Part shown: piece by piece, positions 2,284-57,233 of the stretch
Position numbering within the stretch: the stretch's first letter is position 1
How the letters are laid out: every line of letters begins with the position of its first letter
From: a bacterium ADurb.Bin243
GTDB taxonomy: Bacteria > Muiribacteriota > UBA9980
Direction: 5' to 3'
Assembly (NCBI GenBank): GCA_002069765.1
Contig: MWBZ01000012.1
Span: 8,436 to 72,435, forward strand
Length of the DNA: 64,000 bases
Position numbers and translations under genes: made by a program
The notes under the pieces: model-generated
The model's input: the letters and a program-made list of their open reading frames with translations, nothing else
Databases searched by the model: none
Told to the model about the DNA's origin: nothing

Positions 2284-3687
2284 ATGGAGGAAAAAATGGT
2301 TAAAACCGAGGATTTCATAGTAAAAAATCTTGGAGAGCGCAATTTCATGTCGCCGCTCCCGCTTTCGCACAGCGACGACGACCTGGTTTCCAATTTCATC
2401 GACGACGACGAACGCTTCCTGCACGAAATTTCATTTAAAAAAGTCAGGCAGGTCGTCGCCGGGACCGCCGATAAAAGCTGCTGCTCCGATCTCATAACTT
2501 TCGAGGCCGCCGGGCCACGCGAAAAAATTTATTTCGAGCCCGGAAAGATAAAATGCGGAATCGTCACCTGCGGCGGGCTCTGCCCGGGAATAAACAGCGT
2601 CATACGCGGGATCGTCATGGAGCTTTACTACCGCTACGGCTGTCAGTCCATTTACGGCTTCAGGTACGGCTACCTCGGCATGGTGAAGGAATCCGGAATA
2701 GACCCGATACTGCTCACGCCCGACATAGTGGAAGACATACACGCAAAGGGCGGCTCTATACTGGGCTCTTCGCGCGGCCATCAGGACGTGAATAAAATGG
2801 TCGACCGGCTCATGAATTTCGGCATCTCCGTGCTTTTCTGCATAGGCGGAGACGGCACGCTGCGCGCCGCTCACCTTATCGCCGAAGAAATCCTCAACCG
2901 CGGCCTGAACATATCGGTAATCGGCGTACCAAAAACGATCGACAACGACATAAATTTCGTCGAAAAAACCTTCGGTTTCGAAACGGCGTTTTCCATAGCC
3001 GTAAATTCCATACAATCGGCGCATACCGAGGCAAAAGACTCTCTCAACGGCATAGGCATAGTAAGGCTCATGGGGCGCGAATCCGGCTATATCGCCGCCA
3101 ACGCGGCCCTCGCCTCGCAGGACGTAAACTATATACTGGTGCCGGAAATACCCTTCGATTTGGAAGGGCCTCACGGGCTGTACAGCATACTTAAAGCGCG
3201 GCTCGAACGCAGGCGCCACGCGGTAATCGTGGTGGCCGAAGGCGCGGGCCAGAGCTTTTTCGGCAGCGAAAAAGAGCGTGGAAAAGATTCTTCCGGCAAC
3301 ACCAAGCTCGGCGATATCGGAGTGTTCCTTAAAGACAGCATAAGCAAATATTTTAAAAGCATCGACTTCAAGGTCAATATAAAATATATCGACCCGAGCT
3401 ATATTATACGCTCCGCGCCCCCCATACCGTCCGATTCGATATTCTGCGCGCAGCTTGCGCAAAACGCCGTACACGCTGCCATGGCCGGCAAAACCGATAT
3501 GCTCGTGGGCCTGTGGAATTACCACTTTACGCACGTGCCCATCGCCACCGCGACGCGCGAAAGAAAGCTGATAAACCCCGAAAGCAACCTCTGGCTAAGC
3601 GTAATAGAAGCCACGGGACAGCCGTCGTATATCGGAAACGATCCTATATTTTTATCTAAAACAAGAATTATCGATCAAAAAGATTAG
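2284..3687 (+). CDS. pfk: 6-phosphofructokinase (long PFK type, ATP- or PPi-dependent)
   Basis: 467 aa; PFK family motifs GIVTCGGLCPGINSV, IGGDGTLRAA and MGRESGYIA. An alternative start at 2296 is possible. Confidence 0.85.
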   Translation: MEEKMVKTEDFIVKNLGERNFMSPLPLSHSDDDLVSNFIDDDERFLHEISFKKVRQVVAGTADKSCCSDLITFEAAGPREKIYFEPGKIKCGIVTCGGLCPGINSVIRGIVMELYYRYGCQSIYGFRYGYLGMVKESGIDPILLTPDIVEDIHAKGGSILGSSRGHQDVNKMVDRLMNFGISVLFCIGGDGTLRAAHLIAEEILNRGLNISVIGVPKTIDNDINFVEKTFGFETAFSIAVNSIQSAHTEAKDSLNGIGIVRLMGRESGYIAANAALASQDVNYILVPEIPFDLEGPHGLYSILKARLERRRHAVIVVAEGAGQSFFGSEKERGKDSSGNTKLGDIGVFLKDSISKYFKSIDFKVNIKYIDPSYIIRSAPPIPSDSIFCAQLAQNAVHAAMAGKTDMLVGLWNYHFTHVPIATATRERKLINPESNLWLSVIEATGQPSYIGNDPIFLSKTRIIDQKD

Positions 3688-6023
3688 CCGGCCTTAAAAT
3701 ATTTCATCACGGCTGATTTCAGAATATCGGGAGCCGTGACAGGCTTGGTAAGATAATCGTCCATGCCGGCGGCCATGAATTTTTCGCGGTCGCCGCTCAT
3801 GGCATAGGCCGTCAGAGCTATTATCGGCACGCGCCCGCCTTTTTCCGCCTCTATTTCACGGATGCGGCGGGCCGCTTCTAATCCGCTCATTTCCGGCATC
3901 TGCCCGTCCATTATTATCGCGTCGAATTTTTTCGCGAGATAAAGCTCTACGGCTTCACGGCCGTTTTGGGCCCACGAAACTTTCCACTTATACTTTTTCG
4001 CCATATTCGTTATTATCGCCGCGTTTATTTCGTCGTCTTCGGCGAGCAATATTTCGAGCTCGCGCGCGGTTTCTTCCGAAGCGCCTTTCTTGGAGCCGGA
4101 ATCGGTCTTATCGTAATCGGCCGCGGCTTTTATTTCGCCAACGGCGATTTCAAACGGGATGCGCACGCAGAAAACGCTTCCTTTTCCTTCTTCGCTTTCA
4201 ACGGTGATTTCTCCGCCCATCATTTCCACCAGGCCCCTGACGATCGCGAGCCCCAGGCCGGCCCCGCCGTAGCGTTTCTTGCTCGAATCGTCCAGCTGGT
4301 AAAACATTTCAAATATTTTATCTATTTTATCGGCTGGTATCCCTATGCCGGTATCCGAAATCACAGTTTTTAAAATCACGGTATTGCCGTTCACCGCTTC
4401 CCTGGTAAGTTCTACGGAAATAGAGCCCTGCGCGGTGAATTTATTGGCGTTGGTAAGGATATTTATTAATATCTGCCGGAACCTCAGCTCGTCGCCGTTC
4501 ACCAGATAATTTATGCCGGAATCGATTTTCATTTTTATATCCACTTTTTTATCCCGCAGCTGCTGCGATATTATGGAAACGCAATCGGCGACAGCCTTGG
4601 TTACATCGAAAGGGCTTTTAACTATGGTGAGTTTGCATGCCTCGATTTTTGAAAGGTCGAGTATGTCGTTGATCAGCTCCAGAAGATGAAGCGCCGATTT
4701 TTTTATGGTCCTGGTGAATTCGGACTGCCTTTCCGCCAGGCCGCTGGACGCGAGAAGGTCGGTAAAGCCGATTATTCCGTTCATTGGAGTTCTCAGCTCA
4801 TGGCTCATATTGGCAAGAAAATCGCTTTTAGCCCGGTTGGCCGCTTCCGCCGCCTCTTTGGCCCGTACAAGCTGCGACTGCGTTTTTTTCAAATCGTCGA
4901 GCGTGTTCTGCAGCTCGGCCGTTCTCGAATCAACGCGGGCTTCGAGCGTGTCGTTGTACTCGACCAGCTTCAGTTCGGACAATTTTATGTTTTCAACCAT
5001 TATATTAAAATTTTCCGCGAGCTCCCCGAGTTCGTCTTTAATCTTCACGGCGAGTTTTCTGGAGTAATCCCCGCCGGCTATGGCCTGGGTAATGCCTATA
5101 AATTCGCTAAGCGGCGACGTTATGCTTTTCAAAAGGAGTAAAGCCAGCAAAACCGCCGCGGCGAACGAAACAAAAAAAAGGGAGGTCATAAACAGCGAAT
5201 AACGGACTGCATTCGATTTTATGTCGCCTTCAATAAGCTCGATGGCGGAAGCGAAAATCGTTTTTATTTGCGCGGAGATTTCTTTCAGCTTCTTCTCGTT
5301 TTCTAAAAGCATTTTCTTTACGTTTTTATACTTGAAAAAGAAATCGCGGTATTCTTTAAAATTCTGAATCACGTCGAAATAAAAAAGCTTATTGTCTATT
5401 TTTACCGATGCGTCTTTTTTTTTCTGGAAGGCGTCGATAAGCTCGTCCAGCCTGGATGACATTTCGGCGTTTTCGGTTTCATTAAAGACGCCGGCGTTGA
5501 TTGAATCGGTTAACGCCGAAGACCATACGATCAAAAATGCGATATTCGCTTTATCTTCGCCGGCGAGTAAACCGGCCGCCTCTTTTTCGCCGGTCATCGA
5601 AATGAAAACCTGTTTAAGTTCTTCGGCGCGGCTTTTCAAAGCCTGCTGCCGGTCTTTAACGTTCAAATAACCGTTGAATATATTTTTATATTCTTCTAAA
5701 AACCGAAAAGCTTCGTCTATCTTGTTTTTTTCCCGTTCGTCCGAAAATACTCGCCTCATTTCATTCGACTGTACTATGGTTTGAGAAATAAGATCGTTGA
5801 CTTCCGCCGAATAGTTTCTGCTGTTTTCGATTATATATTCTTTTTCGTTAAGCCTTATACGGTCTATAAGATCGATAATTTTTCTGATTTTATTGGATTT
5901 TTCAACGCCGGCTATAAGATAGTTCTGGCCGAAATAGCTTAAAACCGCATTGAGCGCTATTATTATTATAAAAACGCCGAAACTGAAAGTGATTTTTGTG
6001 CTGAACTTAAAACGGTCTAACAT
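3684..6023 (-). CDS. Hybrid sensor histidine kinase (N-terminal TM and sensor region, HAMP, HisKA, HATPase_c, C-terminal receiver)
   Basis: 779 aa; H-box FLANMSHELRTPMNGIIGF, G-boxes (GGAGLGLAI), C-terminal REC (ILLAEDDEINA...MDGQMPEMSG). Its 3' end overlaps pfk by 4 nt in convergent orientation. Confidence 0.85.
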   Translation of the reverse strand: MLDRFKFSTKITFSFGVFIIIIALNAVLSYFGQNYLIAGVEKSNKIRKIIDLIDRIRLNEKEYIIENSRNYSAEVNDLISQTIVQSNEMRRVFSDEREKNKIDEAFRFLEEYKNIFNGYLNVKDRQQALKSRAEELKQVFISMTGEKEAAGLLAGEDKANIAFLIVWSSALTDSINAGVFNETENAEMSSRLDELIDAFQKKKDASVKIDNKLFYFDVIQNFKEYRDFFFKYKNVKKMLLENEKKLKEISAQIKTIFASAIELIEGDIKSNAVRYSLFMTSLFFVSFAAAVLLALLLLKSITSPLSEFIGITQAIAGGDYSRKLAVKIKDELGELAENFNIMVENIKLSELKLVEYNDTLEARVDSRTAELQNTLDDLKKTQSQLVRAKEAAEAANRAKSDFLANMSHELRTPMNGIIGFTDLLASSGLAERQSEFTRTIKKSALHLLELINDILDLSKIEACKLTIVKSPFDVTKAVADCVSIISQQLRDKKVDIKMKIDSGINYLVNGDELRFRQILINILTNANKFTAQGSISVELTREAVNGNTVILKTVISDTGIGIPADKIDKIFEMFYQLDDSSKKRYGGAGLGLAIVRGLVEMMGGEITVESEEGKGSVFCVRIPFEIAVGEIKAAADYDKTDSGSKKGASEETARELEILLAEDDEINAAIITNMAKKYKWKVSWAQNGREAVELYLAKKFDAIIMDGQMPEMSGLEAARRIREIEAEKGGRVPIIALTAYAMSGDREKFMAAGMDDYLTKPVTAPDILKSAVMKYFKAG

Positions 6024-6034
6024 AAGAATACCTG

Positions 6035-7318
6035 TTATTTATTAAAAGCTTCGGTAAAATCCGGCAGCGCGTTTTTTATGATTACCTCGTAATCGGCCGG
6101 AAATTCGATGATCCTCGTAAACATGGCGAGCCCCGCCGTGGCCGCCGCCGGAGGCGTGGTGAGATCGTAATGGAACGCCAGCTTCGGGCACGAAGCCGCT
6201 TCGGCCAGAAGCCTCTGCTGCATATCAGTATAAAAATTCTTTTCTATATTTATATTCGGCGCGAGGGTGCCCCAGCCGCGGCTCATATTTTTCTGGCTTT
6301 CCACTCCGGCGAGATGAAGCAATGCCTTTTTCGCTCCCGTCACGTTGACCGCTTTTTTAGGGATTACGAGTCCGTCAAGTCCGCCCAGCATGGCTTTCGG
6401 TATTTTTTCGTCCACCGACGGAAACGGGAAAAAGTCGTAATCTTTTCCCTGCGTCCATTTATGCTTCTCGTCGGAATAACTGCCGGTTATCCAGGCGCCC
6501 ATAAGCGTCATGGCCGCTTCGCCCTTAAATACCATTTCGTTGGCGCCGCTTTCCCAGTCGGTATCGTTGGGTTTAGCGTTGAAATAGCCTTTCAGAAGCA
6601 ACCCGCTCCACAGCTTGAACGCCGCGAGCGATTCGGGATCGTCATAGCCGGCTTCGCCCTTTAAAAGCTTTTCCCTGTATTCATAAGGCGCCGTCCTTAA
6701 AAGAAGATAATCGAACCAGAACTGGGCGGGCCATTTTGTTTTAGAGCCGAGAGCGATCGGAGTGATGCCCGCTTTTTTTATGGCGTCGCATACTTTTATA
6801 AAATCTGCCCAATTCGCCGGCGGAGTTAATTTTAAATCTGCGAAGATTTTTTTATTGTAAAAAAAGGCTATAAAATGCTGTGAAATCGGAATCAGATATT
6901 TTTTGCCGTCATAGGTGCAGGCGGTATCGATCAAAGAGCGGTTGAAGGCCTTATCGAGATTTCCTTCCTTCCAGATATCGTCTATCGGCTCGAGATGCTC
7001 TAAAATGGCGCGTACTCTGGCGCCCGCCCAGTTGGAATATATGTCCGGAGGATTGCCGGCTTTCAGCGTTTCATATATGCTCGTCTTAAAAGCTTCGTGG
7101 TCGAGCGTGGTGGCTTCGAGTTCGTATTCCGCGGAATGGTCGTTAAAAGATTTTATCAGCTGAGCGTTTCCATAACTTAAAGTGTTTGAAAAGTAATGAA
7201 GAAAAGTGATCTTTTTCTTCTGCGCCTGCCCGCGGCCGGCGGAAGGCGGCGTTGCGCCGCATCCGGCAAGAAATAAAATAAGCGAAGCGAGACATGCCAG
7301 AAGAGCTGTTTTTTTCAT
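6035..7318 (-). CDS. ABC transporter substrate-binding lipoprotein (extracellular solute-binding family 1-like)
   Basis: 427 aa; signal peptide with lipobox (LFLAGCG); overall SBP fold signatures. Sits directly downstream of, and co-oriented with, the sensor kinase. Confidence 0.65.
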   Translation of the reverse strand: MKKTALLACLASLILFLAGCGATPPSAGRGQAQKKKITFLHYFSNTLSYGNAQLIKSFNDHSAEYELEATTLDHEAFKTSIYETLKAGNPPDIYSNWAGARVRAILEHLEPIDDIWKEGNLDKAFNRSLIDTACTYDGKKYLIPISQHFIAFFYNKKIFADLKLTPPANWADFIKVCDAIKKAGITPIALGSKTKWPAQFWFDYLLLRTAPYEYREKLLKGEAGYDDPESLAAFKLWSGLLLKGYFNAKPNDTDWESGANEMVFKGEAAMTLMGAWITGSYSDEKHKWTQGKDYDFFPFPSVDEKIPKAMLGGLDGLVIPKKAVNVTGAKKALLHLAGVESQKNMSRGWGTLAPNINIEKNFYTDMQQRLLAEAASCPKLAFHYDLTTPPAAATAGLAMFTRIIEFPADYEVIIKNALPDFTEAFNK

Positions 7319-7427
7319 TTCAAAGGTTCCTTATTTATAAAAAATTTCGTAAAACATTACTACACATAATATATATTTTATCTTAATTTGTCAACAAAAT
7401 TAAGATGTTTTTATTGAATCGAGCTTT

Positions 7428-8636
7428 TTATTTGCCGGTCAGCAAAGGCTTGAAAATCTCATAAAAAACCAGGGCGGAAATTATATTGACCGCCAGCAGA
7501 ACCAAAAATTGGCTCCTGCCGTATTTTTTAGATAAATCGGCGACGGTCAGCGGGCAAAAGTAATCCACCGCGCAATTTTTATTCGAAGAAGCGTCCAGGT
7601 CGGCATTTTTAACTATGCGGTCCTTAAAAACTTCTAAAATTATCTCCACAGATTCTTTTGAAGTGTCGCAGTAAAAAGGCGTGCCGTCTTCGGCGCCGCC
7701 GTCTTTATCGTAAACGATGAAACCTATGGCATAAGGCGTCTGCACGAACCGGCAGAAATAATTAAACTCGAGTTTTTTGGCTTCGCCCGCGGAGTAATTA
7801 CGGCCGTTAAATTCTACGCTGTATATATTTCTGTCAGAAAGCCTTATAAAAGCGGTGAGGTCTTTTATATAAAAAACGGCGTATAAAAAGCATATTATTA
7901 AAAATGAGTCGAGAGCGGCTATAAGAAGCCTGCAGTCGAATAACGCCGGAAAATAAAGGCAAATAAAAATTGAATAAACGGAATTTAAAATCAAAAACAG
8001 CGACTGAAATCCAAAATGCGTTGAATAAGGTCGGTTTATAAAATGGCGGAAGCCTAAAACTATCATAAGGCAGTTGAGCGCGAAGTAAGAAAGCGCGGCC
8101 GCGTTAATAAAGCCCGAATCGGCCGCCGCGGCTCCGCACGAAACGTAAAGCGCGAAAATGATCATTGAAATCGAAAGCGACAAGAAAAAAGGCGGAAACG
8201 CCACATAGTAATCGCTTTTATAGGTGATAAAAATATCGCCTTCAAGCCGCCTCGCATCGCCGGAAACTTCGACTCCTATTTTTTTTAGAGCTTCTAGCGC
8301 GGCCCTGGCGGCGAAAGCTCCATGCTTTAAATTCAAATTTTCTTTATCGGCGTAAATCTGAAGATTAGAAAAAAGCATGCGCTTCAGGGGAAGAAGTATA
8401 TAAAATATCCCGAATATTATGTAAACGATGAAATAAAGGCCAGCTGTTTTAAGGAGCGTCGGCTTATGCAAAAATACGAAGTTATAATAATAAATCGCGC
8501 CGAAAACGATAAAAAGTAAAAAAAAGGAATACTTAAAAAGCTCTTCCGACAGCTGCAGATAGTATCCGCTCTTGTAGCCGTTCGAGCCGGAGCCGTTCCT
8601 GCTTATATTGGCTTCGTTATTTTCACTGCCCGCCAT
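7428..8636 (-). CDS. Polytopic integral membrane protein of unknown function
   Basis: 402 aa, 8 or more hydrophobic helices rich in F/Y/I; no recognisable catalytic motifs. Last gene downstream of the four radical SAM genes. Confidence 0.5.
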   Translation of the reverse strand: MAGSENNEANISRNGSGSNGYKSGYYLQLSEELFKYSFFLLFIVFGAIYYYNFVFLHKPTLLKTAGLYFIVYIIFGIFYILLPLKRMLFSNLQIYADKENLNLKHGAFAARAALEALKKIGVEVSGDARRLEGDIFITYKSDYYVAFPPFFLSLSISMIIFALYVSCGAAAADSGFINAAALSYFALNCLMIVLGFRHFINRPYSTHFGFQSLFLILNSVYSIFICLYFPALFDCRLLIAALDSFLIICFLYAVFYIKDLTAFIRLSDRNIYSVEFNGRNYSAGEAKKLEFNYFCRFVQTPYAIGFIVYDKDGGAEDGTPFYCDTSKESVEIILEVFKDRIVKNADLDASSNKNCAVDYFCPLTVADLSKKYGRSQFLVLLAVNIISALVFYEIFKPLLTGK

Positions 8637-8684
8637 GCTTCCTCTTCTTTCGTAACCCGCCAGACCGGAAACTCCTGCCGATGA

Positions 8685-10211
8685 TTAACTAACGCCGCCG
8701 CGGACGGCAAACCCCCTGCTTGTTAATTCCGCCATCACCGCTTTAGTGCGGGCGTTTTTCGCGCTTAAATAATTGCCGATAAATTTTTTTCTGGAAATAA
8801 GCGTTTTCAACACCAGATCGCGATAAATCGAAGCGGCCTGCCTGACGTCGAGCGTTTCGGTAGGAAATATTATCTCGCACTGATCGTTTTGCAGCACCTT
8901 AAATTTATCGACGCCGTGCGCGCCGGAGCGTTCTTCGAAATACCGCGTGCCGTAATGGGCCAGCATGGTATTCGGGCCGATAACGTCGCAGTGCTTTACC
9001 ATGAAATCCAGGTTTTCGCGGAGCGTCTCTTCGGTATCCGAACGGTCGCCCCACATCATCATTCCCATCAGGAGCACGCCGTTTTTTTTCATAAGCGCTG
9101 AAACCGACCTCATAGTATCTGTGGATATTATTTTTTTGAAAGATTTTTGGACCCTGCCGGAAACGCTTTCGAATCCGCACATTATCTGATAAAGCCCGCA
9201 GGCGCGGTACCGCTTCAATAAATCGGCGTTACTCAGAATATTAGCCGCCGAGCTCTGTATCCAGAAGTTGATTTCAAAGCCCCGTTTTTTTTCGAATTCC
9301 AGCAATTCTAAAAATTCTATATTCCTGGAACGGTCCTGCCAGAAATCGCTGTCGCCGAAATAAAACACCCTTCTGCCGTATGCGTTGTATAAAATTTTTA
9401 AAATTTCGAGGCATCTTTTCGCGCTGAACCCGCGCCATTTGTGCCCCCAGAAAGCCGAATCGGCGCAGAAAGAACATTTTTTAACGCAGCCGCGGCTGAA
9501 ACTTACTACGAAACCTACCGATCCGCCCAGCGGCGGAAGGGTATAAAGGTCCATGTCGAAATACTCGAAGGCCGGAATCTGAAGCTCGTCGAGGTTTTCA
9601 ATCTGCGGCATCGGAGGCGTAAAAATTGTTTTGAAAATTTCCGCGCGGTCAAAAAGGCCTTCGCCGCAATTAAACCCGCTGAACTTTCCGGAACCGGCGA
9701 AAATCTCTTTTAAAGTTTTGTAAAAACCGCGGCCGCGCGCGGCGAATTCTTTGCAATACGCTATTCCGCGAAGATCTGCCAAAGCGGATATCCGGTTTTC
9801 TTTTACCGCCGAAAGCAGCCCTGCGAATACCTTTTCGCCTTCGCCCGCGGCGATAACGTCAAAATATCCGCGGCCGATGACCTCGGCGGCGTATGACGAT
9901 AAAAAATTACCGCCGCCGGCGATGATCGAGCGGGGAGAGTATTTTCTGCAAAGCGCGGCAGTGTTGAGAGTTTCATATGCAAAAGCCGATTTCGCGCCCG
10001 AAATGGCTATGACGTCCGGCGCAAAATTTTTGCAGGCGGCCGCGAGGGATTTAACTGGATCAATTTCGAGCGACAGGTCCAGGACCGAAATGCCGTCCGG
10101 CGCGGCGAATTCGCGCGCGGACGGAATAATGGCCAATAGCCCCGGCGAAGGCATTATACCCGGAAAAAATTCCCACGGCTTATGCGGCGGATCGACGAAT
10201 AATATCTTCAT
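8685..10211 (-). CDS. Cobalamin-binding-domain radical SAM protein (class B-like), paralog A
   Basis: CxxxCxxC cluster motif RGCVKKCSFC; N-terminal Rossmann-like B12-binding-type region (MKILFVDPPHKPWEFF). The ORF extends to 10310, but the likely start is the internal ATG at 10211, which overlaps the stop of the upstream gene (ATGA). Confidence 0.75.
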   Translation of the reverse strand: MKILFVDPPHKPWEFFPGIMPSPGLLAIIPSAREFAAPDGISVLDLSLEIDPVKSLAAACKNFAPDVIAISGAKSAFAYETLNTAALCRKYSPRSIIAGGGNFLSSYAAEVIGRGYFDVIAAGEGEKVFAGLLSAVKENRISALADLRGIAYCKEFAARGRGFYKTLKEIFAGSGKFSGFNCGEGLFDRAEIFKTIFTPPMPQIENLDELQIPAFEYFDMDLYTLPPLGGSVGFVVSFSRGCVKKCSFCADSAFWGHKWRGFSAKRCLEILKILYNAYGRRVFYFGDSDFWQDRSRNIEFLELLEFEKKRGFEINFWIQSSAANILSNADLLKRYRACGLYQIMCGFESVSGRVQKSFKKIISTDTMRSVSALMKKNGVLLMGMMMWGDRSDTEETLRENLDFMVKHCDVIGPNTMLAHYGTRYFEERSGAHGVDKFKVLQNDQCEIIFPTETLDVRQAASIYRDLVLKTLISRKKFIGNYLSAKNARTKAVMAELTSRGFAVRGGVS

Positions 10212-11704
10212 CTGGCCATAACGCCCGTTTTCTGCATCTGATAGACAGCTCTTTTCGTGATGAATTCCCTGTAGAATTCGTCGAACTCCTGGTAATTTTT
10301 CTGCACCCACGGCTTCATCGTGAAAAAACTCCAGCCCATCTTGACGAACATGTTGACATAAGTCCTGTAAAGCGGTTTCTTTGAAAAAAGATAATTTCCT
10401 AAAAACTTTTTATTGAACATAAGGTGCCTGCCGACGGTTTTTTTATAATAATAATCCGCGTCGGCCGCCGATAATTCGGCGGTGCGGGTAATGCAGTTTG
10501 TCATATCGTATTTAGTGAGATCGCGGACTTCTATGGCGCCCAGTTTTTCGCATTCGTCGTAATAAGGCGTGCCGGGCCATGGAGTTACTGCGTCGGGCCC
10601 TATTATATCGCAATGCTCGTTCAAAAACTCCAGCGCTTCTACAAGGTCCTGCATGGTGTCATAAGGCGTTCCCCACATCATCATGCCCATTATTATGAAC
10701 TCATGGGGTTTGAGCGTTTCCAGCGCGCGCATTACGAGATCGAAATCCTGGGGCTTATTTAAAACCTTCAGCCCTTTTGGCTTGGGCGTTTCTATTCCAA
10801 CCATGATCTGATAGACGCCCGCTTTTTTTAACCCGTCCAGAAGGGCGGCGTTCTTGACCACGTTACGGCAGGTCGTTTGAATCCACATTTTTATGTCGAG
10901 CTTGTTTTTCAAAACGAGGCCGATGAATTTTTCAGTGCGCTCCTGGTCATGAAGAAAATCGTCATCTCCTATGTAAAAGACGCGCTTATTGTATTTATAA
11001 CGGAGCGTAGAAAGAGCTTCGATCATATATTCGGCGCTATGGCCGCGCCAGCAATGCCGCCACAGGAGAGTTTCAGAGCAAAACTTGCATCTGCCCTGGC
11101 ATCCGCGCGAATATGTGGCTGTAAAGCCGATATTTCCGCCGAAAGGCGCCAGGGAATAGCGGTGCATAGGAAATAAATCGTAGGCCGGCATCGGAAGCGT
11201 ATCCAGGTCTTTAATGAATTCGCGTTCGGCCGTTTTGAACGGTTTTCCGTCTTTAAGGTAAGCCAGGCCGTTTATCGTCGAAAAATCTGTAACGCCGGTA
11301 TTTATAGCTTTGAGCAGTTCCATCATGGTGACTTCGCCCTCGCCGATGACTATGAAATCCAGCAATCCGCCTTCGAGGCCCTCGCGCCATAGCTGATTGG
11401 AAATGTAACCCCCGGTCATTATTTTAGCATCGGGCAGTATTTCGCGTATCAGCCTGGCGCAGTTTAAAACGTCGTACCAGAAGCTCGGAAGCGATCCCGG
11501 AATACATATAACGTCGGGACGCTCTTTTTCGAGATATTCGGCCGTTTTGTTCCACGGCCTGCTCGATTCCGCATAAGCGTCGTAAACTTTTACGTTAAAG
11601 TCGCGGCGCGCGACCGCGGCCAGGTAGATAAGCGCCGGATTAGCCGTCAGGCCCCTGAAAAATTCCCAAACTTTATGGATCGGATCTAAAAATAATACTT
11701 TCAT
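10208..11704 (-). CDS. Cobalamin-binding-domain radical SAM protein, paralog B
   Basis: Motif RGCQGRCKFCSE; N-terminus MKVLFLDPIHKVWEFF parallels paralog A. The ORF extends to 11800; the start is uncertain (11704, 11743 or 11800). Confidence 0.7.
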   Translation of the reverse strand: MKVLFLDPIHKVWEFFRGLTANPALIYLAAVARRDFNVKVYDAYAESSRPWNKTAEYLEKERPDVICIPGSLPSFWYDVLNCARLIREILPDAKIMTGGYISNQLWREGLEGGLLDFIVIGEGEVTMMELLKAINTGVTDFSTINGLAYLKDGKPFKTAEREFIKDLDTLPMPAYDLFPMHRYSLAPFGGNIGFTATYSRGCQGRCKFCSETLLWRHCWRGHSAEYMIEALSTLRYKYNKRVFYIGDDDFLHDQERTEKFIGLVLKNKLDIKMWIQTTCRNVVKNAALLDGLKKAGVYQIMVGIETPKPKGLKVLNKPQDFDLVMRALETLKPHEFIIMGMMMWGTPYDTMQDLVEALEFLNEHCDIIGPDAVTPWPGTPYYDECEKLGAIEVRDLTKYDMTNCITRTAELSAADADYYYKKTVGRHLMFNKKFLGNYLFSKKPLYRTYVNMFVKMGWSFFTMKPWVQKNYQEFDEFYREFITKRAVYQMQKTGVMAR

Positions 11705-11708
11705 AAGT

Positions 11709-13253
11709 TCAGCTCCTTTGATTGATAACTTTACCGTATTCATCGTGCTTGAATAATTTTTTGCGATACCCGAAACGCGACGCAAAGCTTTCGAACGCAT
11801 GTATCCATACGAGTTTTACGTAAGCGCGCTGGTTAAGGCGTAAAAATCTGTTGCGCGAAAACATTTTAAGGTAAAAATCGATATTCATATTAAAAAATTT
11901 AAAAAGCTCGAATTCATATACCCGGCGGGTGGTTTCGTAATCCATGTCCCCGGCCGGCATTATAACGTGCGCCTGGTCGTAAAGAGAGTAATCGGTTACA
12001 AAAATCTTTCCTTTTTCTTTCATTTCGTCAAAAAGGGGCGTGCCGGGGTAAGGCGTAAGCGGGCTCGGGCAGACAAAATCCGAATATCTGCCGAAATATT
12101 TAAGCCCCTCATGAAGCGTTTTTTGATTGTCGTATTGCGTTCCCCAGACGAGCATGGTCATTAGCAAAAGGCCGTTCGCTTTGATTATTTTCATGGCCCT
12201 ATCGATAATTTCCGGATCGGAGTAGGGTTTTTTCAAGTTTTTTAAAACGTCAGAAAACGGGGATTCGGCGCCTATCATAATTTCAAAGAGCCCGGCGCGT
12301 TTCAATACGGGCAAAATGTCCTGGTTTTTTATAACGCTTCCGCAGCAGGACTGTATGTGGAATTTGATCTTCATCTTCTTTTCGAATATAAGTTCGGCGA
12401 ATTCCAGCGCCCATTGCCTGTTATATAAAAAATCGGTGTCGCCGATAACAAAGATGTCGCGCCCGTATTTATTATAAAGCAGCTCGATAAGGCCCGCCGC
12501 ATAACCGGCCGAAGGCTTTCTCATGGTATAGTTCCATTCGTAAGCTTCGGAGCAGAACTTGCAGCGGTTCGAGCAGCCGCGGCTGAAAATAACCCCGAAA
12601 GCCCTGCTGCCGCCGAAAGTGGGCGAAGTATAGCGCTCCATCGGATACAGCTCATATGCCGGATACGGCGATTCGTCGAGGCTTTGAATAAGAGCCCTGT
12701 CCGGCGTGCTTAAAACGGCGTTTCCGTTCATAAAAGAAATTCCGTTAACCGCCCCGAGCGCTTCAGTCATGCGGCCTGTAATACATGTATTTTCGGCCAG
12801 CGACCTGCGCGGCGAAGCGTCGCGGCCTACGCTCGAAGCGAGTATCTCAGCCAGCTGCTTAACGGTAATTTCTCCTTCGCCCCTTACGGCTATATCGATA
12901 AGCCCTTCTTTTATATACTTTTCGTAAAAGACCGAAAAAATTATCCCGCCGCCGGCGATGATCGTGTCGGGCGAGAATTTGCGAATAATTTTAAGCTCGG
13001 CCGAAACTTCGTTGATCTGGCATGTATGAGTGCACGACACGCCTGCCAGATGAGGCCGGAACTCTTCGAGGACACGCTTTAGCTTTTCCCACGGCCGCTC
13101 TTCGATGCTCAAATCGAGGACCCTGAGATTGTAATTTTTCTTCAAACATGAAGCCAGTATAGAAAGCGCTGGCGAGGGTATCGTGCCGTTAAACCATAGC
13201 GACAGGTTTTCGGGAGCGTCGACGAGTAATATTTTAAATTCTTCAGAATTCAT
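11709..13253 (-). CDS. Cobalamin-binding-domain radical SAM protein, paralog C
   Basis: Motif RGCSNRCKFCSE; N-terminus FKILLVDAPENLSLWFNGTIPSPALSILAS. Its start codon overlaps the stop of paralog D (ATGA). Confidence 0.75.
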   Translation of the reverse strand: MNSEEFKILLVDAPENLSLWFNGTIPSPALSILASCLKKNYNLRVLDLSIEERPWEKLKRVLEEFRPHLAGVSCTHTCQINEVSAELKIIRKFSPDTIIAGGGIIFSVFYEKYIKEGLIDIAVRGEGEITVKQLAEILASSVGRDASPRRSLAENTCITGRMTEALGAVNGISFMNGNAVLSTPDRALIQSLDESPYPAYELYPMERYTSPTFGGSRAFGVIFSRGCSNRCKFCSEAYEWNYTMRKPSAGYAAGLIELLYNKYGRDIFVIGDTDFLYNRQWALEFAELIFEKKMKIKFHIQSCCGSVIKNQDILPVLKRAGLFEIMIGAESPFSDVLKNLKKPYSDPEIIDRAMKIIKANGLLLMTMLVWGTQYDNQKTLHEGLKYFGRYSDFVCPSPLTPYPGTPLFDEMKEKGKIFVTDYSLYDQAHVIMPAGDMDYETTRRVYEFELFKFFNMNIDFYLKMFSRNRFLRLNQRAYVKLVWIHAFESFASRFGYRKKLFKHDEYGKVINQRS

Positions 13254-14791
13254 CGGCCCCCGTCCTTCCAGGCTTCACCCATAACCGATTCGTAACCGGG
13301 CTGGTCGTAAAGCTTCTTATGATAGCGCACCGGATTCATAAAGCCTTCGAGCGCGTTCATCCAGATTAATTTAGTGAAGTGCCAGTAATTGATCCTTAAA
13401 AATCTGTTTTTTGAAAACAGTCCCATGTAATAAAACGGGTTTAAATTATAATGCCTCAAAAGCCCCATTTCGTATGTGAACCGCGTTTGCGCGTAACTCA
13501 TTCCGCCTGCGGGGGCTATTACGTGAGACTGGTCGTACACCGCCATATCTTCTACGTAAATTTTGCCTTTTTCCTTCATTTCTTCGTAAAGCGGAGTGCC
13601 GGGATATGGCGTGAGCACATTAGGGCAGGTTATGTCGGCGTATTTATCGAAGAATTTAAGCCCCTCACGGAGCGTTTCGGCGCTGTCGTACTCGGTGCCC
13701 CAGAACATCATGGCCATAAGTAAAACATCGTATTTTTTAACGATCTGCATGGCTTCGATCATGGTTTTTTGATTGAGGTGAAAACTTTTCAGCTTATTTA
13801 AGACGTTTTGAAACGGCGACTCCGTGCCGAGCATAATTTCAAAAAGCCCTATCTCTTTTAACTTCGGGACCAGCGATTCGTTGCGTATAATAGTGGTGCA
13901 CGCGGTCTGGATATGAAATTTTATCTTCACTTTTTTTTGCTTTATAATGTCTATAAATTCCTCGACCCACTCGCGGTTAAGTAAAAAATCAGTGTCGGCG
14001 AATATAAAAGTTGTGCGGGCGTAGTTATCGCGCAAAAGCTCTATGTGCCTTACCGCGTATTCGGGCGAATTGCGCCGCAGAGTATAATCCCATCCGAACG
14101 ACTCGGAGCAGAAACAGCATCTGTTTGCGCAGCCGCGGCCGAAAGTAATTCCGAAAGTTTCATTGCCTCCGTAGATGGGTATTTTATAGTGCCGCATAGG
14201 GAACATTTCGTATGAAGGAAACGGAATTTTATCCAGATTGTGAATATGCGCGCGGGTTTTAGTAACGTGAACCACGCCGTCGCAGATAAAAGCGAGGCCG
14301 TCGATAGCTTTTAATTCGGCGTATTTTTTTGATATGTCAACTGCATTCCCCGCCGCGGCCCTGTTTTTAAAAGAGCAAAGGCTGCGGGTGAGTTCGCTGA
14401 AAGTGAGCTCGCCCTCGCCGGTGGCTATAAAATCAACGAGGCCTTCTTCGAGATAGTCCTTATGGAAAACTTTAAAATGAACGCCGCCTCCGCACACCAG
14501 AGTTTTCGGCGAAAATTTACGAATCATCAAAAGAGCCGCGCGCACTTCGTTTACATGGCATGTGTGAGTGCACGGAATAGCGATCAGATCCGGCGCGAAA
14601 TCGCTCAGGCAGTTTTTTAAACTCTGCCATGGGGTTTTATCGACATTCAGATCCAGAACGCGCACGTCATAGAGCGTTTTAGTGTATGAAGCCAGTATCG
14701 CCAGAGCGGGCGACGGCAATGTGCCGTCGAACCATTTCCAGACCGATTGCGGGGCATCGAGCAATAATATTTTAAAATTTTTTTCGAGCAT
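13250..14791 (-). CDS. Cobalamin-binding-domain radical SAM protein, paralog D (first gene of the operon)
   Basis: Motif RGCANRCCFCSE; about 50% identical to paralog C over the N-terminal 100 aa by eye. Confidence 0.75.
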   Translation of the reverse strand: MLEKNFKILLLDAPQSVWKWFDGTLPSPALAILASYTKTLYDVRVLDLNVDKTPWQSLKNCLSDFAPDLIAIPCTHTCHVNEVRAALLMIRKFSPKTLVCGGGVHFKVFHKDYLEEGLVDFIATGEGELTFSELTRSLCSFKNRAAAGNAVDISKKYAELKAIDGLAFICDGVVHVTKTRAHIHNLDKIPFPSYEMFPMRHYKIPIYGGNETFGITFGRGCANRCCFCSESFGWDYTLRRNSPEYAVRHIELLRDNYARTTFIFADTDFLLNREWVEEFIDIIKQKKVKIKFHIQTACTTIIRNESLVPKLKEIGLFEIMLGTESPFQNVLNKLKSFHLNQKTMIEAMQIVKKYDVLLMAMMFWGTEYDSAETLREGLKFFDKYADITCPNVLTPYPGTPLYEEMKEKGKIYVEDMAVYDQSHVIAPAGGMSYAQTRFTYEMGLLRHYNLNPFYYMGLFSKNRFLRINYWHFTKLIWMNALEGFMNPVRYHKKLYDQPGYESVMGEAWKDGGR

Positions 14792-14847
14792 TCTGCACCT
14801 GATATCATTATGTTATAAAAGTTTATGGCAAAGCATTGCACACATAA

Positions 14848-14856
14848 ATTATATCA
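14848..14856 (-). promoter_or_regulatory. Putative extended -10 promoter element (TGATATAAT on the minus strand) upstream of the radical SAM operon
   Basis: Reverse complement of 14848-14856 reads TGATATAAT, about 57 nt upstream of the start at 14791, in an AT-rich 170-bp intergenic region. Confidence 0.3.
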
Positions 14857-14963
14857 AACCGCGCAGGTAAATGCAAATAAAAAAAACGCCGGACAAGCCT
14901 GCGCTCGATTTTTTTCGCGGCAGGGTTAAATCGTTAAACAGGTCTTTTGAATGATTATTTAAA

Positions 14964-15428
14964 TCAGCGGACAGGCATATGGCTCATTAATCTCATTAGC
15001 GGCGGCGGATTGACTGGCGCGACCGGAACGAATTTTCGGGCGGCGTTTACGCAAAGCCGGTTATAAGGAATTCCGGAAAGGCTTTTTTCAGAGGAAGCCG
15101 AAACGATATATTTATTTTCTTTTTTTTCCACCAATAAATAATCGGCCCGTTTCGTGAAAGGGTCCGGATAAAGGTTTCTCAAATATCCTTTTTTTTGGGT
15201 TAATTCTGAAATCGAGGCCGGCCATTTTTTTTCTTCGAGGTTAAACCTTAAAAGCGCCATATTATATTCGAGCAGATATGATTTGAGCAGTTCTTCCTTT
15301 GCGCCCCTGACGGCCGTTTCTGAATTTAAAGCCAGCTTATGCGCCGTAACTGCCGCAATCATTACGAAGATAATGACGATTATAATAACTCCGCCGCGCC
15401 GGCTTTGAAATTTATCATAAATTTTCAT
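14964..15428 (-). CDS. Pseudopilin-like protein (GspK/minor pilin-like N-terminus RRGGVIIIVIIF)
   Basis: N-terminal hydrophobic segment after an RRGG motif; C-terminal motif SISELTQKKGYLRNLYPDPF shared with the three neighbouring pilins. Confidence 0.45.
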   Translation of the reverse strand: MKIYDKFQSRRGGVIIIVIIFVMIAAVTAHKLALNSETAVRGAKEELLKSYLLEYNMALLRFNLEEKKWPASISELTQKKGYLRNLYPDPFTKRADYLLVEKKENKYIVSASSEKSLSGIPYNRLCVNAARKFVPVAPVNPPPLMRLMSHMPVR

Positions 15429-15831
15429 ACTTTACCTTTTCGAGGCTCTCTCCGCGGGCGCCTGATTTGATATCATAAACGTCTTTTTTTTGCGTCGACG
15501 AAGGTATTATAATCCACGTGTCGTTTTTCTCGGTTACCGGATCGATCGGAAGGGCCGTGATATATTTTTTGTCCACCAGTTCCTGAAGGCTTTCCGGATA
15601 CCTTTCATGGTCCTTATAGAACCTGGATATGGTGTCGCGCACGCCGCGAAGGTTGCTTTTTAAAACGCTTTCCTTCGTTTTTCTGGCGCTCTCGCCGATC
15701 AAAGGCTGGCTCGCCGCGAATAAAATGCTTATGATTATTACGACGGCAAGCACTTCTATAAGCGTAAAGGCTTTGATTTTTCGTAAACCGTAAAATTTAT
15801 TTGCTTTAAGCGTACATGATGCAAAAGGCAT
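15415..15831 (-). CDS. Prepilin-type N-terminal cleavage/methylation domain protein (type IV pilin / T2SS pseudopilin)
   Basis: KAFTLIEVLAVVIIISIL class III signal peptide, with Ala rather than Gly at -1; C-terminal SLQELVDKKYITALPIDPVT. Confidence 0.75.
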   Translation of the reverse strand: MPFASCTLKANKFYGLRKIKAFTLIEVLAVVIIISILFAASQPLIGESARKTKESVLKSNLRGVRDTISRFYKDHERYPESLQELVDKKYITALPIDPVTEKNDTWIIIPSSTQKKDVYDIKSGARGESLEKVKYENL

Positions 15832-15884
15832 ACTATCTTCCCCGCTTTTTTTATTTTAACGCCGATATTTAAAAAACGGACTTC

Positions 15885-18800
15885 TTATAACCTGGCGTCC
15901 CTGACTATAATTTTTATCTTCTTCCATTCGAATTCGATTTCCTTGAAAATTTCAATAGCTTCCTTTATGTCGATTTTTTCGATCATTTCCAGCTCCGACG
16001 CGAGGCGCGCAAGCCTGTTAAAACACATGTTCAATGACGCGCCTTTAAGCGAGTGGGCGAGCTGCGAAATATTATGGGCGTCTTTGCGCTCTACCGCGTC
16101 CGCGAGCCCTGCCAGCGATTCGGCGAATTTATTCAAAGACATTTCCAGGAGCTTTTCAAACAATAACTTATCGTTATCCACTCTATGCATAAATTCATCG
16201 GCGTCAAAACTCGAGCATTGCTGAGCCTCCGCTTTTATTTTGCCGCCGGAAATATTTTCAGTCCCCGCGGCGAGATATTTTTCGAGGACCCGGCGAAGGT
16301 GCTCAGGGTTTATGGGTTTCGTTAAAAAATCGTTCATCCCTGCCGCAAGGCATCTTTCTTTTTCTTCTTTAAGCGCGCCGGCGGTCAGAGCTATTATAGG
16401 CACTCGCGCGGCGCCGGCGGCTTCTCCGGCTCGAATCTGCCTGGCGGCTTCTATTCCGTCCATTACCGGCATTTGAATATCCATTAATATAAAATCCGCG
16501 CGGCCGGTTCCCGCCGCTTCAACCACTTCTTTTCCGTTCTGTGTTTCGATGATTTCCGCCCCCGGGATATGCCTTTTTATCATCGTTTTAACCAGCAGCA
16601 TATTTATATGCGAATCCTCGGCCAGAATTATCAAAGGCGGCCTTTCCACGGCGGGAACTATTATCTTAGAAGATAAGTCGAGCTGCCTGTTGACGTATTC
16701 GTTAAAACCGGAACCGCTGTGAATATTTTTAAGATAATAAAACAGCTCGGCTGCTTTTACCGGCTTTACCAGATTGAAACGAACGCCGAGTTTTTTGCAT
16801 TTATCCGTGATATCCGGATCGTCTGACGAGCTGTGCAGTAGAATCACGGGTTGCCTTGCAGCCGATAAGTTTAATTTTTCACGGATCATGCTTATGGTAT
16901 CCAGGCCGTCGAGCTCCGGCATATGGTAGTCGACTATAATAACGTCAAAACGCTCCTGTGAAGATATGATTTCGAGCGCCTCGCGCCCTCCCGCGCAGCC
17001 GCAAAACTCGATGTTCCAGCTTTTAAGGGTGTGTTCGAGAATCAACCTGTTGTTGTCGTTATCATCGACCACGAGTATCCTTTTAACGTCTTCGATGCTT
17101 CTGACGTTTTGATTTTCGGCATATCCATATTCCGTTTCCAGCGAAAAAAAGAAAACGGACCCGCGCCCCGGCTCGCTTAAAAGCTCTATTTTTCCGCCCA
17201 TCTTTTCGATAAGAAGATTCGAAATTATAAGGCCAAGGCCGGTTCCGCCGTATTTTCTGGTAGTCGACGTGTCGGCCTGCGTGAAAGCCTTGAAAAGCTT
17301 AGCCTTCTGCTCTTCGCTTATGCCGATGCCGGTGTCGCGCACTTCAAAAAAATATCTGCCTTTCCTGTCGTCTATTTTGCTGAACCGCAGCTTGATTTCG
17401 ATTTCGCCGCTATCGGTGAATTTTACGGCGTTACTTAAAAGATTGACCAGCACCTGCTTTAAGCGGACCGGATCCACGGCCGCAAAATTAGGCGTATCGG
17501 GATGTATATTTATCAAAAGCTCGAGGTTCTTTTTAGACGCCTGAAATTTAATAATATCCGAAGCGGTTTCGACAAGCTCCGTTATATCGGTCTTTATGGT
17601 TTCGAGCTCGATGCGGCCGGCTTCGATCTTTGAAAAATCGAGTATATCGTTAATAATTCCGAGAAGCGATTGCGCTGAAATATTTGCATTTTCGACGAAC
17701 TGGCGCTGGACCGAGGTTAAATCGGTGTTTTTAAGAAGGTCGGTAAACCCGATCACCCCGTTTAAGGGCGTGCGTATTTCGTGGCTCATATTCGCCAGAA
17801 ACTCGGATTTGGCACGGTTTGCGGCTTCGGCATGTTCCGCGAGCTCCTGCGCGTGGCTCATCGCTTCCTGCAGGCGGCGGTTCGCTTCCAGCAGCTGGCG
17901 CTCGTAAAGCTTGCGTTCCGTTATGTCGCGGGTAACGCCGTGATAACCGGTCAGCAGTCCGGTTTTATCGCGGTACGCTACAACGGTGATCTCTGTCCAC
18001 ACCCAGCTTCCGTCTTTGCATTTTTGCTCCAGCTCATAACGCAGAGGGCCGGTTTTCACGCCGCGCCGCTCGTCTTCAAGGCGCCCGGCGTTGGCTTTTT
18101 TAATATGTTCGACGCCTTCGGGCTTTAACATCGACCATAGCTCTGTGCCGATGACTTCTTCCTTGCCGTAGCCACGCATGCGTTCGTCCGCGGGGCTTAT
18201 ATAAGTAAAACGGCAGGCGCTATCCATATGCCAGATAACGTCGCTCGAATTTTCGGCCATGATCCTGAATTTTTCTTCACTTTCGCGCCTCGCGTCTTCG
18301 CTGGTTTTCAATTCGAAATATTTCCACACGGCGTCCATCAATAAAGTAAGCTGCAATATATCGGCTTCGTCATATTCGCTTTCTTTGTTGGCTACTCCGA
18401 CTACCGCCACTACGGCGTCATCGCGGAAAATCGGCACGGTCAAAAAACGCCTGAGCTCGACATGGCCTTCAGGGTAGCCTTTTTTCAAAGGATGGGGGGC
18501 GCCGAAATCGTTTAAAACGATCGCCTTGCGCTGGCGGACGGCTTCGCCCCATACGCCGGTTTTGTCCAGAGCGTAAACGGTCTGCGGATCGACGACGGTG
18601 CATTCTTTCATAACGTCTCTGGACCAACTGTTTAAAATGAACTGCTTGGTGTCCTCTTTGTAATAATAAATATAGCCGATTTTGCTTCCGGTAATCGCGA
18701 TAGCCTCGTTGAGGGCGTTGTCCAGATATTGCTGGTTGCTTTCACCCCTGAAATGCATTATATTCAAAACACTTCTGAGGCGCTCCACGTTGCGGGCGTC

Positions 18801-18908
18801 TCCGCTTCCGGCGGAATTTTTCGGCGCCCCGGCCTTACCGCGGGAAGCGTTTGAAATATTATTTTTTTTCGTAATTTCTTTCACCATAATCGGATCCTCG
18901 CGCGGCAT
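15885..18908 (-). CDS. Hybrid sensor histidine kinase/response regulator (GAF, PAS, HisKA, HATPase_c, two receiver domains, HPt)
   Basis: 1007 aa; H-box FLANMSHEIRTPLNGVIGF; two REC domains (ILVVDDNDNNRLIL... and PLIILAEDSHINMLL...DIQMPVMDG); C-terminal HPt (AHSLKGASLNMCFNRL). Confidence 0.85.
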   Translation of the reverse strand: MPREDPIMVKEITKKNNISNASRGKAGAPKNSAGSGDARNVERLRSVLNIMHFRGESNQQYLDNALNEAIAITGSKIGYIYYYKEDTKQFILNSWSRDVMKECTVVDPQTVYALDKTGVWGEAVRQRKAIVLNDFGAPHPLKKGYPEGHVELRRFLTVPIFRDDAVVAVVGVANKESEYDEADILQLTLLMDAVWKYFELKTSEDARRESEEKFRIMAENSSDVIWHMDSACRFTYISPADERMRGYGKEEVIGTELWSMLKPEGVEHIKKANAGRLEDERRGVKTGPLRYELEQKCKDGSWVWTEITVVAYRDKTGLLTGYHGVTRDITERKLYERQLLEANRRLQEAMSHAQELAEHAEAANRAKSEFLANMSHEIRTPLNGVIGFTDLLKNTDLTSVQRQFVENANISAQSLLGIINDILDFSKIEAGRIELETIKTDITELVETASDIIKFQASKKNLELLINIHPDTPNFAAVDPVRLKQVLVNLLSNAVKFTDSGEIEIKLRFSKIDDRKGRYFFEVRDTGIGISEEQKAKLFKAFTQADTSTTRKYGGTGLGLIISNLLIEKMGGKIELLSEPGRGSVFFFSLETEYGYAENQNVRSIEDVKRILVVDDNDNNRLILEHTLKSWNIEFCGCAGGREALEIISSQERFDVIIVDYHMPELDGLDTISMIREKLNLSAARQPVILLHSSSDDPDITDKCKKLGVRFNLVKPVKAAELFYYLKNIHSGSGFNEYVNRQLDLSSKIIVPAVERPPLIILAEDSHINMLLVKTMIKRHIPGAEIIETQNGKEVVEAAGTGRADFILMDIQMPVMDGIEAARQIRAGEAAGAARVPIIALTAGALKEEKERCLAAGMNDFLTKPINPEHLRRVLEKYLAAGTENISGGKIKAEAQQCSSFDADEFMHRVDNDKLLFEKLLEMSLNKFAESLAGLADAVERKDAHNISQLAHSLKGASLNMCFNRLARLASELEMIEKIDIKEAIEIFKEIEFEWKKIKIIVRDARL

Positions 18909-18920
18909 GGCCGCCCTATC

Positions 18921-19376: not shown

Positions 19377-19443
19377 TCGTTTTCGCTTACAAATATTTTA
19401 AACCGCCCCGGTAAAAATCACTTATAATTTTTAAATTTTATTT

Positions 19444-22081: not shown

Positions 22082-22174
22082 TTATGCACCCGCTTTTTAA
22101 ATTAATTTCTTTATTTTGCCGGCCGCGTAAGCCGGCCGCAGATCATCTTTTAATATCGTTTTTATTCGCGCCGA

Positions 22175-24043: not shown

Positions 24044-24104
24044 TTTATAATTCTCCTTTACCTTCCGGCCGGCGCGCCGGGCCCGCAAAACTTTCGCGGT
24101 TAAA

Positions 24105-53335: not shown

Positions 53336-53343
53336 GCGGTTCC

Positions 53344-57199: not shown

Positions 57200-57233
57200 A
57201 AATTAACATTTTAAAAAAAGGACGGACAGTACA

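Follow-up and report, generated by a model that had tools for sequence, protein, structure and literature searches.

The stretch of DNA analysed here, called the window, comprises 64,000 nucleotides (nt) of contig MWBZ01000012.1 from a bacterium ADurb.Bin243, and it carries a cassette of four genes for radical S-adenosylmethionine (SAM) enzymes followed by a gene for a membrane protein. The same sequence is found as contig JAKJHQ010000015 of the metagenome-assembled genome (MAG) 'bacterium ADurb.Bin243' and is also present in two Joint Genome Institute (JGI) metagenomes. Open reading frame (ORF) calls placed five tightly packed genes on the minus strand, spanning 7428-14791, which were named D, C, B, A and M in the order of their transcription (Table 1; window positions are used throughout). 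An earlier note on this DNA had described four minus-strand genes with CxxxCxxC motifs, and both the motif letters and the placing of the genes agreed with the sequence. The ATGA stop-start overlaps that it had reported at 13250-13253 and 10208-10211 are also real: the start of C overlaps the stop of D (ATGA at 13253-13250) and the start of A overlaps the stop of B (ATGA at 10211-10208). Gene B begins with an ATG at 11704, preceded by an AAGGAG Shine-Dalgarno site and located 4 nt past the stop of C, and M lies 3' of A behind a 48-nt spacer holding a GAGGAAG ribosome-binding site. This layout shows a translational coupling that is predicted to co-produce the enzymes with the dedicated seven-helix protein M. 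The protein lengths in Table 1 replace the 510-540 amino acids (aa) given before, which had been taken from the longest ORFs (530 and 541 aa for B and A); we adopted the shorter starts, giving 498 aa for B and 508 aa for A, because they agree with all orthologues.

The earlier note had seen no intervening promoters, but a promoter-like consensus site is present 5' of D. This sigma-70-like candidate has 10 of 12 consensus matches and a TG-extended -10 element; it is a consensus match only, of which about 11 are expected by chance in the region, and it lies in the sole sizeable intergenic gap. The second candidate, found 3' of M and likewise a consensus match only, probably serves the next gene, encoding a solute-binding protein, and would thereby mark the 3' limit of the unit. 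Read-through into the cassette from upstream genes is possible, since the hairpin behind the upstream pilin-like gene is weak (z = -0.94). No Rfam family, including riboswitches, and no tRNA was detected in the window.

The bacterium is a relative of Candidatus Wallbacteria. The cassette recurs as a block, with differing flanks, in about a dozen independent related MAGs or contigs, and this recurrence of the order indicates that the gene arrangement is not due to chance. The order D-C-B-A-M was found in the window and in loci L007/L023, L010, L019, L021 and L024 (L numbers denote the loci compared), D-C-B-B'-A-M in L020, D-B-A-M in L025 and D-B-A, without M, in L016/L026. Wherever M is present it lies directly 3' of the A-type gene, even where M itself is only 21-31% identical. 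When the window was compared with L007 and L010, the identities were 86-88% for B, 83-84% for D, 75-78% for C, 70-71% for A and 47-48% for M. Conservation is highest for B (80-88% across most Wallbacteria-like cassettes, 69% in L016); orthologues of A are 54-87% identical, and those of D, 65-84% identical, occurred in Wallbacteria-like contigs only. D/C-type proteins in general were met only among Wallbacteria-like sequences. A solitary fifth paralog of the D/C type, 47% identical to D, was found on contig JAKJHQ010000008 of the same MAG (locus L015); it has no radical SAM or M neighbour and adjoins release-factor-like and Ser/Thr kinase genes. The cassette is thus a self-contained, lineage-restricted, conserved and autonomous operon of Wallbacteria-type bacteria.

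All four enzymes passed the Pfam gathering score for the radical SAM domain (PF04055; 42-63 bits against 29.5, with D at 55.3 and A at 42.2) and that for the B12-binding domain (PF02310; D 44.5, C 47.3, B 44.8 and A 32.7 bits against 32.1, A being marginal). These hidden Markov model (HMM) searches bear out the N-terminal Rossmann-like domain of the B12 type that the earlier note had read from the letters, marginally so for A, and together with the fold of B they uphold the class B-like architecture proposed for all four proteins. An AlphaFold (AF2) model of B, with a mean confidence (pLDDT) of 86, matched AprD4, OxsB, CysS, TsrM, MgmA and TokK with E values of 1e-16 to 1e-23; it superposed on OxsB, CysS, TsrM, MgmA and TokK with E values of 1e-16 to 1e-21 and template modelling (TM) scores of 0.63-0.71. 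Cobalamin use by the four enzymes is what this domain architecture suggests.

The earlier note had arranged the enzymes in two paralog pairs. The D/C pair stands, at 48% identity; B and A do not form a second one, since at 32.5% they are no nearer to each other than B is to D (34.5%) or to C (32.4%), and B, A and D/C are mutually 31-35% identical. The cassette therefore comprises three old and distinct class B radical SAM subfamilies, namely D with its duplicate C, B, and A. C is a lineage-specific duplicate of D, since it is missing from the cassettes of L025 and L016/L026. A neighbour-joining (NJ) tree, which carried no support values, grouped D/C, A, B and the B-like sequences of other phyla in one clade, in which D/C and A were branches made up of Wallbacteria only; this suggests an old, subfunctionalised enzyme set and not recent copies.

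None of D, C, B or A reached a curated NCBIfam cut-off. HpnR (TIGR04367, cut-off 650) gave 78-102 bits across the four enzymes, HpnJ (TIGR03471, 578) 61-97 bits, the B12-radical SAM family of ladderane-type lipids (TIGR04072, 360) 56-73 bits, the peptide C-methyltransferases of TIGR03975 (rSAM_ocin_1, 282) 48-90 bits and ApyD (750) 49-107 bits. With every score far under its cut-off, the enzymes stand outside the characterised families, as had been supposed. A defence-system or phage origin was also considered and rejected, PADLOC giving one weak generic match to the radical SAM core and PHROGs none. The best NCBIfam match for all four was BchE, the anaerobic Mg-protoporphyrin IX monomethyl ester cyclase (TIGR02026), with 162.8 bits for D, 165.8 for C, 183.4 for B and 122.3 for A. 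BchE resembles the cassette enzymes in having a B12-binding domain N-terminal to the radical SAM core, its alignment covers most of the length of D, C and B, and relatives are often automatically annotated with its name. These BchE-like enzymes might accordingly remodel a porphyrinoid or a similar cofactor, as kin of the radical SAM suites found with nitrogenase paralogs in Elusimicrobia. In L012 an orthologue of B lies 9 kb from a NifH/NifD-like fusion gene and a run of radical SAM genes, loci of this kind have been predicted to reduce a tetrapyrrole (10.1101/765248), and Elusimicrobia bacterium GWF2_62_30, named in the same study, carries an orthologue of B (L030). We consider such cofactor tailoring unlikely. 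The BchE scores fall far short of the cut-off of 481 bits, so that the enzymes are not members of that family, and the next matches (HpnR, HpnJ and ApyD) are about as uninformative; neither the cassette nor the scanned parts of the window showed any bacteriochlorophyll, tetrapyrrole or nitrogenase-like gene, and the flanks had no bacteriochlorophyll or tetrapyrrole genes; and M would be left unexplained. The source organisms appear, from MAG and sample names, to be non-phototrophic bacteria of anaerobic digesters and groundwater.

The 402-aa protein M, described in the earlier note as a multi-pass protein of no known family, matched nothing in Pfam, NCBIfam, PADLOC or PHROGs, and its sequence matched nothing in the PDB. 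Only 11 homologues were found among 5.8 billion clusters, and a profile search returned about 9 clusters among 1.84 billion representatives. Hydropathy and an AF2 model (pLDDT 70) gave seven hydrophobic helices, a long loop at residues 85-146 and a beta-rich domain at about 257-340. The motifs RMLFSNLQIY and GFRHFINRPxSTH and the beta-rich domain probably face the cytoplasm, since Lys and Arg abound in the long loops. Residues D142, T206-H207, K288 and P301 are among those invariant down to 21% identity in the alignment (for the distant members the alignment gave 21% and BLAST 25-27%). The N-terminal segment (GYKSGYYLQLSEELFKY...) and the loops are strongly conserved among closer relatives, the N-terminal motif not being kept in distant members. 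M evolves far faster than the enzymes, with 47-48% identity against 70-88% in the same genome pairs. Kinship of M with the small membrane protein that follows B in an Elusimicrobia locus (L013) was rejected, the two being unrelated (hhalign probability 0.04).

The reading that we marginally and tentatively favour, with peptide modification as a close rival, is that the enzymes, with M as their partner, tailor a membrane-resident substrate step by step through radical chemistry. Each enzyme would cleave SAM at its [4Fe-4S] cluster and abstract an unactivated hydrogen, and the enzymes would then successively C-methylate, or form C-C bonds at, different positions of one hydrophobic substrate residing in the membrane, most likely a lipid or a lipid-linked molecule. 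The conserved loops and the beta-rich domain of M would serve to hold this substrate, or to present it, on the cytoplasmic side. The logic would be akin to that of GrsA followed by GrsB on tetraether lipids, or of HpnP and HpnR on hopanoids. We favour this reading because the cassette is self-contained, because M co-varies with the cassette and carries polar motifs that are conserved and probably cytoplasmic, and because the known lipid-modifying class B paralogs work stepwise. It is an established pattern for class B paralogs to act one after another on membrane lipids: in GrsA/GrsB, Gmm, HpnP/HpnR, HpnJ and TIGR04072, paralogous B12-domain enzymes modify a single membrane lipid successively or at different positions (PMC13459092), the likeness to GrsA, GrsB and Gmm being drawn by analogy from that review only. 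In contrast to the cassette, none of these systems has a dedicated polytopic partner such as M, and the cassette, for its part, has no adjacent lipid genes and scores far below the HpnR, HpnJ and TIGR04072 cut-offs. A second radical SAM cluster with a beta-ketoacyl synthase (KAS) gene and a KAS-like gene lies in the same window, which was counted in favour of the membrane reading.

The lack of peptide-pathway genes also bears on this choice. No precursor-sized ORF fits the 172-nt, 4-nt or 48-nt gaps, the other two gene pairs overlap, and no small ORF is conserved across the cassette variants, in none of which was a protease, exporter or recognition-domain gene found. The earlier statement that precursor, protease and transporter are missing holds in and beside the cassette, both in the window and in relatives with different flanks. 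We found outright neither a lack of the B12 domain, nor membership of a characterised family with a known substrate, nor a homologous array elsewhere that always lies beside a precursor, which were the three outcomes that the earlier note had named as counting against its proposal.

Several observations weigh against the tailoring of a membrane-resident substrate. Fold searches with M gave no significant match and no functional lead, the beta domain alone matching PH-like folds weakly. One lineage (L016/L026) has D-B-A without M. The radical SAM proteins have no hydrophobic segment by hydropathy, and no lipid-synthesis gene adjoins the cassette. The top structural match of B, AprD4, is a B12-domain enzyme described as a diol dehydratase and not as a methylase. 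AprD4 is not known to need cobalamin, so that a B12 domain alone is no proof of cobalamin use, and for the cassette enzymes we infer both methylation and cobalamin use, neither of which is established. In addition, a conserved small peptide and a SPASM peptide maturase lie beside the B orthologue in 4 of 6 Elusimicrobia loci.

It is rather doubtful that the cassette makes, in a candidate phylum, a membrane lipid or lipid-linked molecule of a kind not seen before, bearing several methyl groups or rings, and that M founds a new class of substrate-handing partners. To our knowledge, the role of a membrane partner that hands a bilayer-embedded substrate to a soluble enzyme has no example for any class B enzyme. 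The substrate could also be M itself: the four enzymes would modify the membrane protein encoded last in their operon, just as methyl-coenzyme M reductase is modified by Mmp10 and MgmA. M is the sole non-enzyme of the cassette and always follows A, its N-terminal segment and loops are highly conserved among closer relatives, and the structural matches of B include the protein-modifying class B enzyme MgmA. We nevertheless regard this as very improbable, given the D-B-A cassette of L016, the much faster change of M compared with the enzymes and the loss of the N-terminal motif in distant members. We know of no precedent for four radical SAM enzymes serving one membrane protein.

Among the four enzymes only B has orthologues elsewhere, which are 58-62% identical and occur in Elusimicrobia; further B-like proteins of Myxococcales and Thermodesulfobacteriota are 38-43% identical, and no other B12-radical SAM protein of Elusimicrobia exceeds 29% identity to A-D. 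Of the Elusimicrobia loci, L012/L028, L013/L027, L037 and L047 have the peptide-maturase pair next to B, and L030 and L031 have B without it. The peptide is 41-50 aa long and Lys-rich and ends in KKLSRYCRSGRVLW (in L037 KNLSRYCRSGRVLW), and the SPASM radical SAM protein beside it is PapB/nif11-like but under its cut-offs. A gene for a CrtI-family oxidoreductase is also near B in the four loci. In L037, B, the peptide and the maturase follow each other on one strand, with the CrtI-family gene and a small membrane protein 2-4 kb downstream, past an inserted AAA gene. Further distant B12-radical SAM genes lie near B in L013/L027 and L037; none was seen in L012/L028, and L047 was too short. These groundwater Elusimicrobia suites, described by Méheust et al. 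beside group VI nitrogenase paralogs (10.1101/765248), resemble the cassette in holding orthologues of B and dense B12-radical SAM arrays; they differ from it in having no D/C, A or M, and their SPASM maturase, peptide, CrtI-like oxidoreductase and NifH-like genes are missing from the Wallbacteria cassette.

A metagenome scan with a back-translated pattern of the peptide yielded 55 matching loci (L041-L095). The peptide was present in 52 of them, with a SPASM gene also beside it in about 51. These peptides are Lys-rich and 27-50 aa long, with an invariant C-terminus ...LSRYCRSGRVLW, mostly ...KKLSRYCRSGRVLW, and they lie directly upstream of a radical SAM/SPASM protein of ~495 aa that is PapB-like (215-234 bits against a cut-off of 340). 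Most of the pairs have no B orthologue nearby. A BchE-like B12-radical SAM gene follows the pair in several loci (L044, L049, L052, L058, L078, L080 and L092), and in the NJ tree no sampled outgroup lay nearer to the A/B/C/D clade than these BchE-like genes. NCBIfam holds no model of the peptide, and the literature search found no paper containing 'YCRSGRVLW'. The pair is apparently a widespread, undescribed small-peptide system.

These data bear on the modification of a peptide or protein, namely of a ribosomal peptide encoded elsewhere that would be C-methylated or cross-linked as in proteusin-type pathways, with M serving in export, immunity or as a scaffold. Several B12-radical SAM genes in one operon are a typical mark of heavily methylated ribosomal peptides, which counts for it, and the likeness to the peptide C-methyltransferases (TIGR03975, ApyD and the PoyB/PoyC type) lies in this number of class B genes per operon and in the peptide and SPASM maturase that adjoin the Elusimicrobia orthologues of B. 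The neighbourhood holds in two different orientations, which suggests that B and the peptide are linked. The link of the metagenomic pairs with BchE-like genes, and with it the position of those genes in the tree, points the same way, as does a peptide-modifying arginase (OspR), a Wallbacteria homologue of which has been characterised (PMC8597712). On the other side, no precursor was found in or beside any of the about a dozen Wallbacteria cassettes with their varied flanks, nor any leader-recognition, protease, export or SPASM gene, and tblastn with the Elusimicrobia peptide gave no homologue in the window or in the Wallbacteria loci. None of the 55 pattern matches carries the prefixes of the two JGI metagenomes that hold this contig, a weak point because the presence of these metagenomes in the scanned collection is unconfirmed. 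The B orthologue is missing near most peptide-maturase pairs and occurs without a pair in two Elusimicrobia loci, and the peptide clusters contain no orthologue of D/C or A. Peptide modification is possible, if somewhat unlikely. The Elusimicrobia association of B with a peptide and a SPASM protein favours this explanation, which the earlier note had set aside, and the self-contained Wallbacteria cassette with its co-conserved membrane protein favours the membrane-resident substrate; neither peptide methylation nor the tailoring of a lipid or of the envelope can be preferred firmly.

The rarity implied for the gene combination was overstated: larger B12-radical SAM arrays exist in Elusimicrobia, with eight genes within 16 kb in L013, and such arrays have already been published for this group (10.1101/765248). 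Similar orphan arrays are common in metagenomes. The statement that the combination is not a described pathway held, as we found no description of it in a thin and partly misdirected literature search, nor any paper tying Wallbacteria to these genes. The enzymes are of a known kind, and their combination with M is new as far as that search reached.

In five Thermodesulfobacteriota loci (L035, L036, L038, L039 and L040) a radical SAM gene of the B-like type (38-40%) comes third, after the ATPase and permease genes of an ABC-2 transporter, and the three form a conserved unit. As a functional lead, the wider context of the B-like genes was discarded, being heterogeneous (the ABC-2 transporter; L032/L034 with unknown proteins; P0072 after Peptidase_U32). 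In the Elusimicrobia locus L012, a peptide whose tail is made of His-Gly-Ser repeats stands with an HxsD-like gene and a radical SAM gene; after these come four radical SAM genes and the NifH/NifD-like fusion, in agreement with the published group VI nitrogenase-paralog neighbourhood (10.1101/765248).

Upstream of the cassette lies a type IV pilus or type II secretion-like operon (14964-25331), interrupted just upstream of the cassette by a hybrid histidine kinase gene. Its pilin-like genes were rejected as partners or substrates, as they are adjacent to the cassette only in the window and in GWC2_49_35 and not in L010, L016 or L019. The downstream solute-binding protein and histidine kinase genes (3684-7318) were likewise not taken as part of the unit, because only the closest relatives have them. 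They stand between M and a PFK gene only in this species and in L029; in L007, L017 and L021 the PFK gene comes directly after M. L007 retains a 51-aa remnant of the receiver domain of that kinase, which suggests a recent gain or loss at this site. The second radical SAM cluster of the window, with fatty-acid-like genes, occupies 52097-62129.

Table 1. Features of the cassette, of its flanks and of the loci compared (positions are those of the sequence named in the second column)
Feature	Sequence	Position	Strand	Remarks
Candidate sigma-70-like promoter	window	14848-14877	-	TTTGCA, 18 nt, TG, TATAAT; in the 172-nt gap 5' of D
Gene D, class B-type radical SAM	window	13250-14791	-	513 aa; CANRCCFC at residues 221-228 (window 14108-14131)
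Gene C, class B-type radical SAM	window	11709-13253	-	514 aa; CSNRCKFC at residues 227-234
Gene B, class B-type radical SAM	window	10208-11704	-	498 aa; CQGRCKFC at residues 202-209
Gene A, class B-type radical SAM	window	8685-10211	-	508 aa; CVKKCSFC at residues 242-249
Gene M, membrane protein	window	7428-8636	-	402 aa; seven predicted transmembrane helices
Candidate sigma-70-like promoter	window	7366-7394	-	TTGACA, 17 nt, TATTAT; 3' of M
Solitary D/C-type paralog	L015	10001-11563		
Elusimicrobia peptide	L037	11517-11660	+	
Elusimicrobia peptide	L013	9635-9787	-	
Elusimicrobia peptide	L012	9642-9767	-	
HxsD-like gene to NifH/NifD-like fusion	L012	12414-21479		
Solute-binding protein	window	6035-7318		
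Hybrid histidine kinase	window	3684-6023		779 aa
Pilin-like gene	window	14964-15428		pilus/secretion-like operon; paralog of the next
Pilin-like gene	window	15415-15831		pilus/secretion-like operon
Hybrid histidine kinase	window	15885-18908		1007 aa; interrupts pilus/secretion-like operon
Pilin-like gene	window	18921-19376		by sequence inspection only
PilM-like gene	window	21053-22081		pilus/secretion-like operon
T2SSE ATPase	window	22175-24088		pilus/secretion-like operon
T2SSF	window	24105-25331		pilus/secretion-like operon
Second T2SSF	window	33657-34886		
MiaB/RimO-like radical SAM	window	52097-53335	-	second cluster
MiaB/RimO-like radical SAM	window	53344-54546	-	second cluster
Beta-ketoacyl synthase	window	54546-55865		second cluster
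Hexapeptide-repeat protein	window	55862-57079		second cluster
Bmp-type binding protein	window			second cluster; listed between hexapeptide-repeat and KAS-like genes
KAS-like protein	window	58356-59408		second cluster
Fifth B12-radical SAM	window	59441-60886		second cluster; 20-23% identical to A-D
Protein without assignment	window	60999-62129		second cluster; 376 aa

Some of the most demanding C-H functionalisations in biology are the work of class B radical SAM enzymes, a family that is for the most part uncharacterised. The cassette unites three distinct enzyme subfamilies and one orphan membrane protein in a compact unit that may have a promoter of its own. Among its natural variants are some that lack C or M and one in which B is duplicated, and these provide ready-made deletion controls. 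Its compactness, its conservation across a candidate phylum and these variants make it tractable for heterologous expression. A peptide product, if true, would tie the cassette to the widespread, undescribed ...KKLSRYCRSGRVLW peptide system, and a lipid product, if true, would represent a new membrane modification and possibly a new source of biomarkers from anaerobic digesters and groundwater.

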